Source of the DNA: Escherichia coli
Lineage (GTDB): Bacteria > Pseudomonadota > Gammaproteobacteria > Enterobacterales > Enterobacteriaceae
DNA: 64,000 nt
NCBI RefSeq assembly: GCF_024223415.1
Contig: NZ_CP100500.1
Direction: 5' to 3' (one strand)
Part shown: positions 15,806 to 18,800 of the stretch, piece after piece
How the letters are laid out: every line of letters starts with the position of its first letter
How positions within the stretch are numbered: the first letter of the stretch is position 1
Made by a program: the position numbers

Positions 15806-18800
15806 TAATGAGGGACGTATTTGTATTAGTCGCGACTTGATCTGACACATGGCCTTGAAAGGTTGAGAGTTACCGGTTTTGATATGAGTGTCGAATCCTT
15901 ATCCAAAACAAGAGGTAACTCTCATGCTTCATACTGCCAATCCCGTCATCAAACACAAAGCCGGTTTGCTCAATCTGGCTGAAGAACTCAGCAACGTATC
16001 AAAAGCCTGTAAAATCATGGGCGTTTCGCGTGATACGTTTTATCGTTACCGCGAACTGGTCGCTGAAGGCGGTGTGGATGCGCAGATTAATCGTAGTCGC
16101 CGCGCTCCTAACCTTAAGAACCGTACCGATGAGGCAACTGAACAGGCTGTTGTTGATTACGCCGTCGCTTTCCCGACACATGGTCAGCACCGGGCCAGCA
16201 ACGAGCTGCGTAAACAGGGGGTTTTTATCTCCGACAGTGGTGTCCGTTCTGTCTGGTTACTCCATAACCTTGAGAATCTCAAAAGACGATACTGAACAAA
16301 TTTTATCAGGTGACGTTCCGTAAAAAGTTGTATGGAGTTCTCGATGCAGTCGGCGCGACTATCAGTACCCCCGCTGAACCCTGGACTATCGGGCCGCCGT
16401 ACTGGGGCATGTCACCCTGGCGTGCCGCTGGTTTTCCGCTAATGGTTTATTTCCTCTTTCTTTCCCGGCAAGAATTTATTTTAATCCGGAAGGATTATTT
16501 ATTTTCAGATAGGGACTCACATTAAACACGTAACATTTTAATTAATGCATGGCTGAATATGTATTACACAATGTCAGATATCGTAAAAGACCAGTGCAAT
16601 TCTATGTAAACTCTCTGACTGTTTATTTTATTTGTTGTTTCAGGGTCGGAACTCACCCTCAATAAACAACTGAATACGAGTAGATATTCATCGTCTGAGC
16701 TATATGGCTTTACACAATAGCCGACATGTCTTTTCTCAGTCAGAAATTTTACTTTTCCTCACTACGAAGTTGACGACTTCGATATGGGATAGACTCTTAA
16801 TTCAAGCAATTACTCTGCACAAGCATCAGGCAATCCAGCTCCAATATTTGTTATAAAATAATGCGTAACATTAATTTCACCAACAAAAAAAAGGTTTACG
16901 CTATCCCCTTGCCCTGGTATTTTACCATATTTACACCACACTTTTTTTGTATCTGGATCATTCTCTGATACGATTTTCGCCACTTGTTCCCTGGCCCTCA
17001 CTGTCAATGTTTTCTTAAACCTACCCCCATCATCATTTGTTAGGGAAAAATAAGAAAAAAATAATCATCTTCTACATTTGTGTATATTGATATATCCACC
17101 GCTACGTGCGGAAAAAAATCTGGGAGCCATGTAAAAACTCCATCATTTTCTGGTATTGCCATATAGTTTATGTAATGTTTACTTACAAGAGATTCATCTT
17201 TGTATAAATAAAGATAAGTAATTACGCATAAAACAACAATGATTATAATAGCAAAAATAAATATTATCATCTTTGATAGATTACTTGAGATAGCCAGCAT
17301 CTTGTAAAGCCTTTATCGTTTTTTTATGCTCTGGATTAATATAATCACTACATCTATCTGAGCAATCTGTTGTTGATGGACATGTCAACCCATGGTCATT
17401 TACAGCCAAGTCTTTTTTATTATCTTCAATCATTTCAGAATGGGATAGCTTTACTTTTCTGCCGTACATACCGAACAGATTTAACCCGTAATCTCTAATC
17501 TCTTTTTCATAACCCAGCCCTTTCGCCGATCGGCTAACACCAGCGTCATTTAATTTAGACACTCGACAAAATGCCATACAATGGAAAAATTGATCAGTCC
17601 CACCTAAATTTAATCTCTTCATATCTTCATAAGTATCAGATAATATATCCCATGCTCTTTGATGGTTTAGTTGATCTTTTCTTCTTATTAGCGCTACATC
17701 TGCGGGACTTAACCCTAATGGATCAATACCATTCACCGGATTCAGCGGATACGCATACAGACTCCATCCCCCCTCCAGCCCTATCGGGTCCTGAGTGATA
17801 TACCGCCCCTGCAACGGATCGTAGTACCGGTTCCGGTTGTAGTACAGCCCCGACTCCTTATCATACTGCTGCCCCGGCAGCCGGTACGGCTGGTGCAGGT
17901 GATGCGGGTTCTCCTCATTAAGCTGGTTGCCCCATTCATCATATTCCGCGCTCCACGCCGTATTGCCGTCTTCACTGATAAGCGCCAGCGGCAGGCCCCG
18001 GTAGTCACAGTGATAAAGATGTATTTTTCGCTCAGGCAAATAAACCGGCTCTATCTGTGCCGCCAGCCGCTCCACCGTCAGCCCGCACTGCGCAAGCCAC
18101 TGGCGGCTTTCACTGCTCACGCAGTTTGCCCGGATTTCCCCCTCCAGCCTGTCCAGCAGCCCCACCAGTTCAGCCGGGAACACCACACCGTGGCCGTCTT
18201 CGCTCCCTTCCTGCTGCAGCTTCTCCGCCAGGCTGCGGCACTGCGCTTTCTCCCGTTCACCGTTGTCTGTTTCGATGCGGATGAGCGGCGCGAAGCTCCC
18301 CGGCTGGTATACCGTCTGGATACGCGTGGTGTCGGTCTGTACCGTCGTCAGCCGGTCGCCGTCCCATCCGTACCACGTCACCTCCGGTTTACGCGACAGC
18401 GACATCCATCCCGTCAGGTCACGCTCCCGCCGCCATACCCGTTTCGCCATTCGCCGTCCCAGCGGGTCACAGAGGTAGCGGCTCTCGACCAGTGGCTCGC
18501 CATGCTGTATCCGCGTGTGGAACACCAGGCGGTGCTGGCTGTCGTAGTGATAGTGGTGGGTCCGCTCGTCGTCCGTCCGTATCACACCCGCCGGGATGCG
18601 GTCCGTCTTCTCCGTCAGCCTGCCGTATTCATCGTGGCGGTAGACATAGTGCGCATCCTCCGCGATGCGGTTATCCGGCCACACTGTGAGTGTACTGTCC
18701 GGGTGCAGCTCCGGGTCCGGCAGCCGGTTTCCCGCCGGGTCGGTCGCATACGGGATGCGGATGTCCAGGTCCGGTGCGAGGGTGCGCACGCTCTCCAGCC

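Follow-up and report, generated by a model that had tools for sequence, protein, structure and literature searches.

Serum amyloid A (SAA) is a protein whose biochemical activity has been unclear for decades. A 2025 classification by Burroughs, Nicastro and Aravind (eLife 2025; PMC12419801) places it, together with Wnt, TelC, PTDSS, VanZ and others, in the Lipocone superfamily, and proposes bacterial toxins that cleave lipid head groups as the ancestors of SAA. In this scheme a prokaryotic SAA family, prok-SAA, serves as the toxin tip of polymorphic toxins, including those linked to type VI secretion systems (T6SS). No prok-SAA toxin has been characterised by experiment, and lipid head-group catalysis is a prediction for the family. 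The sole Lipocone relatives with a characterised activity are TelC, which cleaves lipid II outside the cell and is the one toxin among them, and PTDSS1 and PTDSS2, which exchange phospholipid head groups. The immunity proteins of Lipocone toxins are described in the same work as membrane-anchored proteins or lipoproteins. A tip of the prok-SAA type, followed by the gene ybbD, forms the end of the rhsD gene in the DNA described here, a stretch of 64,000 nucleotides from Escherichia coli (contig NZ_CP100500.1 of assembly GCF_024223415.1) that is referred to as the window and is numbered from its first letter.

A 2020 in-silico study of enterohaemorrhagic E. coli (EHEC) EDL933 modelled the C-terminus of RhsD (z0651) on human SAA1 (4ip8, TM 0.623). 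It reported that seven PAAR-Rhs proteins of O157 match PF00277, and it left the downstream 'RhsDI' unexplained. As far as sequence analysis goes, neither the family assignment of the tip nor its E. coli example is new.

The 142 residues that follow the DPLGL motif of the window's Rhs protein belong, with little room for doubt, to the prok-SAA family of the Lipocone superfamily. They are a bacterial relative of animal serum amyloid A and are paired with ybbD. The whole explanation favoured here, whose probability is put at roughly 60%, is that rhsD ends in a variable toxin with the cognate immunity gene ybbD beside it, both probably inactive in this strain; the toxin would be a periplasmic enzyme acting on lipid head groups and would be neutralised by YbbD. 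The features on which it is built are the following.

17281..20775, minus strand: open reading frame (ORF) of rhs with the tip, the 3' part of rhsD (1164 aa: YD-repeat shell, Rhs-associated core and toxin tip); from the ORF list, NCBIfam and Pfam
17710..17790, minus strand: core/tip boundary DPIGL-(17)-DPLGL, the conserved end of the Rhs-associated core; from the sequence, with DPLGL itself at 17724..17710
17284..17709, minus strand: toxin tip, 142 codons after DPLGL, prok-SAA Lipocone domain; from profiles, an AlphaFold model and Foldseek
17281..17283, minus strand: rhs stop codon; from the sequence
17040..17300, minus strand: 5' part of ybbD, 86 codons with the N-terminal membrane anchor and the WLPDFFP motif; from the ORF list and NF011297
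16810..17054, minus strand: 3' part of ybbD in the other frame, residues 84-163 of the intact protein and the stop; read after restoring one base
17055..17061, no strand assigned: frameshift site of ybbD, A7 on the plus strand and T7 on the coding strand, against 8 in the intact allele; from alignment to strain SCU-316

The original prediction, made from the sequence alone, had described a swapped polymorphic toxin tip on an Rhs protein, of foreign base composition and with its immunity gene directly downstream. This description was borne out. The rhs frame runs on for 142 codons (17709..17284) past ...NGIDPLGL, and the GC content drops sharply, the rhs core (17710-21521) having 63.6% and the tip 36.6%. 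It is 32.8% at 16810-17300 and 54.2% in the whole window. The chance of 142 stop-free codons at the base composition of the tip is about 7e-6.

The tip had also been said to match no recognisable toxin family, and this part of the prediction fell to the profile searches. The tip alone matches Pfam SAA (PF00277) at an i-E of 4e-4, and its sole sequence matches in the PDB are SAA entries, all weak; among the NCBIfam models none covers the tip. Rhs proteins of Enterobacteriaceae are the sole source of close homologs. A profile made from six close tips and run against 1.84 billion representative proteins retrieved 143 relatives at E<=1e-3. Most of these relatives are longer proteins with the match at their C-terminal end, and Rhs/YD-shell domains are present in the seven that were located on contigs. 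The relatives grade into sequences with the classical ...GADKYFHCKANCEA... motif, and 34 of 52 aligned members match Pfam SAA individually at E<=1e-3 (45 at E<=0.1). Human SAA1 scored an E of 7.7e-13 with a profile of bacterial relatives that was built without any SAA sequence. Furthermore, the published prok-SAA sequence set includes WP_074823867.1 and HAU8267270.1, the latter being a Kluyvera tip that is 57% identical to the tip of the window. A known and characterised domain had been named beforehand as the result that would speak against the original prediction; the domain is indeed known, but its family has no experimentally characterised member.

Structure prediction of the 142-aa tip, which had been proposed as a check, gave an all-helical AlphaFold model with a pLDDT of 96.8. 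Its helices span residues 3-34, 40-52, 57-79, 91-109 and 117-124, plus 130-138. The top seven matches of this model in a Foldseek search of the PDB were all SAA1 or SAA3. As modelled, the tip fits the layout of the SAA-Wnt clade, in which a four-helix core is followed by a short fifth helix.

Which residues of the tip are likely to matter? With residues numbered from the last L of DPLGL, D40, H44, E71, D101, N105 and G108 are invariant in an alignment of 52 sequences, human SAA1 among them, and M31, C45, C49, D74, D97, C117 and C121 are at least 90% conserved. The positions of the pocket residues and cysteines in the window are as follows, with helices taken from the model.

17389..17595, minus strand: predicted active-site region, helices H2-H4; from the 52-sequence alignment
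17593-17595, minus strand: D40
17581-17583, minus strand: H44
17500-17502, minus strand: E71
17491-17493, minus strand: D74
17410-17412, minus strand: D101
17398-17400, minus strand: N105
17389-17391, minus strand: G108
17350..17580, minus strand: twin Cx3C cysteine region; from the alignment and the model
17578-17580, minus strand: C45 on helix H2
17566-17568, minus strand: C49 on helix H2
17362-17364, minus strand: C117 on helix H5
17350-17352, minus strand: C121 on helix H5

In the published Lipocone scheme, H2 carries a histidine, H3 a glutamate and, at its end, an acidic residue, and H4 an sNxxG motif (eLife 2025; PMC12419801). Judged by alignment, H44, E71, D74 and N105 occupy these predicted active-site positions. 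The H4 motif sNxxGR is not complete in the tip, where it reads A-V-N-D-H-G-L; the N and the G are retained and the R is replaced by L. This replacement is common to a whole subgroup marked by G-x-x-C-P. It is a departure inside the prok-SAA family and does not rule out membership. Conservation of the twin Cx3C cysteines reaches at least 90% among the bacterial relatives, and animal SAA has none of them. They probably form disulfides, and their pattern suggests that the tip acts in the periplasm.

The distribution of conserved residues bears on the idea that the tip kills by inserting into the inner membrane or aggregating on it, as a pore or an amyloid-like assembly. Animal SAA has been reported to form channels and amyloid, and its homolog, the tip, is likewise a small bundle of helices. 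In the 2020 EHEC paper it was proposed that RhsD 'could auto-aggregate'. Yet the tip domain has a strongly polar character and four conserved cysteines that stabilise it, conservation across the family falls on polar pocket residues and not on amphipathic faces, and the SAA-Wnt clade is described as soluble and of low hydrophobicity (eLife 2025; PMC12419801). A pore or aggregate is therefore very unlikely.

Downstream of the tip, the original prediction had noted an 86-aa ORF (17040..17300) overlapping the final 20 nt of the rhs frame and, after it, one of 65 aa (16810..17007), and had taken them as candidate immunity genes. Their positions are as described, but they are not two separate genes. 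The 86-aa and 65-aa ORFs are the halves of one 163-aa gene, ybbD, which is split because one base has been lost from an 8-base homopolymer. The region 16300-17800 of the window (1,501 bases) matches thousands of E. coli genomes, and the best matches have one extra base. The homopolymer at 17055-17061 is the sole indel between this region and strain SCU-316, in which a single 163-aa gene follows rhs. Restoring one base to the window gives the same protein, WP_000879783.1. The repaired YbbD matches NCBIfam NF011298 from end to end with 378.9 bits (cut-off 326), and the 86-aa product matches the 86-aa model NF011297 with 183.8 bits (cut-off 173). The 65-aa ORF is a mechanical remnant of the 3' part of ybbD. 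In annotation terms, a single frameshifted gene accounts for the two 'hypothetical proteins' behind rhsD.

YbbD has a predicted N-terminal transmembrane helix and is modelled with about eight strands and two helices; the frameshift falls after strand 80-86, within a single modelled alpha/beta domain. Its homologs are assigned to PF26610 (YbbD_head) in precomputed Pfam matches. The YbbD region also has a weaker NCBIfam match, NF007301/PRK09781. This model was guessed to represent K-12 YbfC, the neighbor of the orphan ybfO, but YbfC has no similarity to YbbD, and ybfO and rhsC do not match the tip profile. A search of the literature on ylbH, the K-12 counterpart of the tip, and on ybbD returned nothing on function.

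A comparison with other rhs tips and their immunity genes had also been suggested at the outset, and it supports the pairing. It covered the seven located tip homologs, which are about 32-52% identical to the tip of the window, and a gene was counted as YbbD-like if it carried a shared WLPDFFP-type motif or matched PF26610. A full YbbD-like gene directly follows the tip in five of the seven (L009, L012, L013, L015 and L016), the motif shared by these partners being Y..IP...G..WLPDFFP. In L012 the partner is an ORF that the gene caller had overlooked. Of the remaining two, L014 has a partner ORF that is cut by the contig end but opens with the same WLPDFFP-type motif, and the match in L011 is weak. 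Since YbbD-like genes of the same layout trail such divergent tip homologs, to an identity as low as about 35%, an immunity role of YbbD is supported, which suggests that YbbD is the cognate immunity protein of the tip. The YbbD homolog of L015 has a lipoprotein lipobox in place of the transmembrane helix, which places the YbbD-like domain in the periplasm.

The L009 locus (CP029992.1, locus 1832-5667) is an array made up of orphan Rhs tips. It consists, in order, of an Ntox16-like fragment, a DUF6714 protein, an SAA-like tip with a YbbD_head gene, and TseH with Imm58. Here the SAA-like tip and YbbD travel as one cassette among other toxin-immunity cassettes.

Against the window-type allele, the divergent allele of strain EC581 (L019) shows 10 amino-acid replacements for the tip (pN/pS 0.46) and 9 for YbbD (pN/pS 0.27). 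Values below 1 in both genes fit a pair that evolves together. The ten tip differences fall into two groups, one at residues 9-29 and the other at 106-122, the latter adjoining H4 and the H4-H5 loop. They may mark the contact surface between toxin and immunity protein.

Where would the toxin act? A periplasmic site of action is likely because the Cx3C cysteines are conserved, YbbD has an N-terminal transmembrane helix (a lipobox in one homolog), in keeping with what is published for the immunity proteins of Lipocone toxins, and TelC is active only outside the cytoplasm. The alternative is an enzyme of the cytoplasm, such as a Cys/His peptidase or a nuclease, as in most characterised Rhs tips. 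A weak Pfam match of the tip to Peptidase_C7 (E 0.02), over the stretch FFHCMAFC with its conserved adjoining His and Cys, would fit a peptidase. This match is found in only 1 of the 52 members, against 45 that match SAA at E<=0.1, and is taken to be due to chance. The twin Cx3C pattern is typical of structural disulfides, and an immunity candidate that is membrane-anchored or a lipoprotein, with an exported domain, would leave the cytoplasm unprotected. An enzyme of the cytoplasm is thus extremely improbable.

How might the tip poison the periplasm? That it is an enzyme acting on lipid head groups is a tentative proposal, by analogy with its Lipocone relatives, and stands a little short of an even chance. 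In the proposed sequence of events, the Rhs shell would enclose the tip, autoproteolysis at the DPLGL boundary would free it, and the tip would be delivered into a neighboring cell, presumably by a T6SS. Its activity would be confined to the oxidising periplasm, the compartment in which two helix-to-helix disulfides can arise between the twin Cx3C cysteines. The pocket of H44, E71, D74 and N105 would most likely cleave or exchange the phosphate-linked head group of an envelope lipid. The analogy with TelC makes an undecaprenyl-(pyro)phosphate-linked intermediate, for instance lipid II, the best candidate substrate, and an attack on its head group would halt the synthesis of the cell wall. From its anchor in the inner membrane, YbbD would reach into the periplasm with its alpha/beta domain, bind the incoming toxin and so neutralise it.

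The same pocket can be read in another way, which is the main rival to a lipid enzyme. The tip could be a non-enzymatic binder that clamps the periplasmic C-terminal domain of OmpA-family proteins, as the Bacteroides toxin BteO does. The link between the outer membrane and peptidoglycan would then be loosened, with blebbing and lysis as the effect, and YbbD would be a decoy for the binding groove. The essential His, Glu and Asp residues of BteO resemble the pocket of the tip, and such a mode of action would echo the known binding of animal SAA to E. coli OmpA. BteO, on the other hand, is a larger protein with no sequence similarity detected to the tip. An OmpA binder is considered rather unlikely.

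The state of the two genes varies across E. coli. Three further features are needed here.

20772..21521, minus strand: 5' fragment of rhsD (249-aa ORF, MSGKPAARQGD...), severed from the remainder of the gene by a duplication; from the ORF list
20772..20857, no strand assigned: exact 38-bp tandem duplication that shifts the rhsD frame; from Tandem Repeats Finder
17768..17773, minus strand: homopolymer G6 of the core, immediately upstream of the tip, where several other strains have G7; from alignments

A 71-nt probe over the homopolymer of ybbD matches 2,324 of 5,426 complete E. coli genomes. In 1,414 of these (about 61%) the sequence is identical to the T7 allele of the window, and at most 906 have the intact T8 allele or a single-base variant. 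The state of both genes was examined in twelve genomes, the window included. An intact toxin stands beside a T8 ybbD in SCU-316, M15 and EC581, and beside a T7 ybbD in O157:H7 SS NE 1040-1. The toxin is orphaned or broken beside a T7 ybbD in K-12, REL606, O111:H8, E2863 and the window, and beside a T8 ybbD in UTME-9, a fox isolate and A39. In UTME-9 (L007) a complete transposase of the IS481 family lies between the tip and ybbD. The G6 run is G7 in O111:H8 08-4347, E2863, UTME-9 and the fox isolate, whose genes are annotated as 'frameshifted'; there the additional G separates tip and Rhs core, and the tip is left as a 151-aa 'hypothetical protein', WP_001013164.1. Single-base slips thus switch off both genes of the pair in different lineages. 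In an evenly spaced sample of 60 matching genomes, the tip is on the main rhs gene in about 15 and is an orphan of the K-12 type in about 27. The locus decays repeatedly, mainly by homopolymer slips.

A simple rule, that a T7 ybbD always goes with a disabled toxin, holds in five of the six T7 genomes and is broken by O157:H7. Co-decay of toxin and immunity gene is also contradicted by the three T8 genomes with a broken or orphaned toxin. O157:H7 SS NE 1040-1 (L018, locus 3521-7958) carries an intact 1398-aa Rhs, whose tip differs from that of the window by one change, K131E, beside a frameshifted 86-aa ybbD. It departs from the general expectation for such pairs that no intact toxin stands without intact immunity. 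The absence of kin-directed firing, a functional head fragment or slippage may each account for this state. A toxin that needs export would be harmless to its producer from inside, and on this ground an intact toxin beside a T7 ybbD would be allowed.

One possibility for the small ORFs alone is that the T7 ybbD is alive, either because its 86-aa head protects (alone or jointly with the second piece) or because slippage on the U7 run, be it transcriptional or a -1 ribosomal shift, yields a share of full-length YbbD. T7 is the majority allele, O157:H7 combines it with an intact Rhs bearing the tip, and the 86-aa head is modelled separately in both NCBIfam and Pfam. Read from the sequence, a -1 shift on U UUU UUU C would yield exactly the 163-aa T8 protein. 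However, the break lies inside one modelled domain, the toxin too is orphaned or broken in five of the six T7 genomes that were examined, and a periplasm-only toxin can persist in a genome without immunity since it does no harm to the producer from inside. Programmed frameshifting at the run is unsupported: the 80 nt that follow fold no better than shuffled sequences (z 0.22), and a stimulator of frameshifting is thus missing. A living T7 allele is on the whole rather improbable.

A bolder and doubtful reading combines several of these proposals. In it the tip would work in the periplasm as a phosphoesterase or transferase whose targets are undecaprenyl-linked or phospholipid head groups, YbbD would represent an immunity family new for such toxins, and the T7 allele would be partly functional by way of the 86-aa head or slippage on the U run, explaining the intact toxin of O157:H7. 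If true, this would be the first time that a protein of the serum amyloid A family is shown to be an enzyme, and the toxin-immunity pair concerned lends itself to genetics.

In the window itself, the pair has probably decayed or been inactivated, because rhs is broken by the 38-bp duplication and ybbD by the frameshift. The duplication has a period of 38, 2.3 copies and 100% matches (Tandem Repeats Finder), and is flanked by a 10-bp direct repeat, TCACGCCGGT. It splits rhsD into a 249-aa N-terminal ORF and a 1164-aa ORF that carries the tip, with no continuous reading frame between them. SCU-316 is without the extra 38-bp copy, and other strains also have the intact 1400-aa gene. None of the 5,426 complete E. 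coli genomes has the duplication; every best match consists of two pieces that span 93 bases and not 131. It may be a very recent lesion specific to this strain, or an assembly artefact.

Taken without the duplication, rhsD encodes the intact 1400-aa Rhs of SCU-316. This protein matches NCBIfam RHS_core over residues 1-1258 with 2721 bits (cut-off 2000) and TIGR03696 Rhs_assc_core over residues 1181-1258, the latter match likewise ending at 1258. Pfam gives several RHS_repeat matches and the Rhs header domain DUF6531 at residues 46-123 (E 8e-18). Of the Pfam PAAR motif, just the final 18 positions align, and weakly (E 0.27). No vgrG adjoins rhsD.

The toxin locus lies on the minus strand of a region with the E. 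coli gene order gcl-allR-allA-allS-mnmH-ylbG ... rhsD ... ybbP. In K-12, O157:H7 and the window alike it occupies the same chromosomal site, between ybbP and ylbG-mnmH. Two neighboring features complete the picture.

16348..16443, minus strand: ylbI-like remnant, the 5' end of another rhs gene; from its translation against the rhsD N-terminus
15888..16295, plus strand: ylbG, annotated as a partial helix-turn-helix protein without its C-terminus; from the annotation

The remnant just downstream of ybbD reads ISGKPAARQGDMPQYGGPIVQGSAGV... / ISGKPAARQGDMPQYGGPIVQGSAGVLIVAPT, where the start of rhsD is MSGKPAARQGDMTQYGGPIVQGSAGVRIGAPT. It is a pseudogene in K-12, where it corresponds to ylbI, and in the RefSeq annotation. 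The ylbG gene abuts this remnant and appears to resemble the N-terminal part of a transposase of the insertion sequence (IS) type.

How does this locus compare with the systems described so far? With the prok-SAA family it shares the core of helices plus one short additional helix, conservation at the H, E, acidic and N..G positions, use as a tip on polymorphic toxins of the Rhs/T6SS type, and a membrane-anchored or lipoprotein immunity partner. It differs in belonging to the G-x-x-C-P subgroup, which has a C-terminal extension (...GYLK) and the R to L change in sNxxGR. The immunity domain Imm-SAA is described as one helix and four strands held by four absolutely conserved cysteines (eLife 2025; PMC12419801). 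Compared with this description, YbbD (PF26610) is without four invariant cysteines; outside the membrane helix it has C123 and C161, neither of which is invariant in ten aligned homologs. The name YbbD was not found in the supplements of that paper. YbbD may be a separate immunity family for this prok-SAA subgroup.

Within E. coli, the tip of K-12 ylbH is identical in amino-acid sequence to the tip of the window. The K-12 ybbD has the same T7 frameshift, and the same 86-codon stretch is annotated there as a ybbD pseudogene. The difference is that in K-12 the tip, the pseudogene ylbH, is orphaned behind rhsD-ybbC, whereas in the window it is still on the main rhsD. The z0651 gene of EDL933 is known here from the description in the 2020 study; the tip of O157:H7 SS NE 1040-1 differs by one residue. 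That study read the likeness to SAA as a role in host inflammation or aggregation, in contrast to the antibacterial envelope toxin proposed here. Animal SAA1 and SAA3 are homologous to the tip and share its four-helix core and the conserved D, H, E, D, N and G positions. They differ as secreted acute-phase apolipoproteins that have no cysteines, no Rhs carrier and no immunity gene.

The TelC-TipC system of Streptococcus intermedius, in which TelC is a lipid II phosphatase toxin, belongs to the same superfamily in the 2025 classification and is the model for the proposed chemistry. TelC acts only outside the cytoplasm, and the immunity protein TipC is directed to the outer side of the membrane. 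The differences are that TelC is of another Lipocone clade and is delivered by a type VII secretion system (T7SS) in a Gram-positive bacterium, and that the fold of TipC differs; no direct match in sequence or structure was found between TelC and the tip. BteO-BtiO of Bacteroides fragilis (PNAS 2025; PDB 9UU0) stands on the other side, with a toxin that is reported to be non-enzymatic and to bind OmpA. BteO counts nine helices and two strands and carries a membrane helix of its own at the N-terminus, and its immunity protein BtiO mimics the C-terminal domain of OmpA. The remaining value of the E. coli locus is as a tractable system for testing what an SAA-type domain does. A toxin of this kind at a fixed site, with natural T8 and T7 immunity alleles and a silent orphan in K-12, is convenient for such tests, and rhsD-ybbD could decide between the enzymatic model and the OmpA-binding model of BteO.

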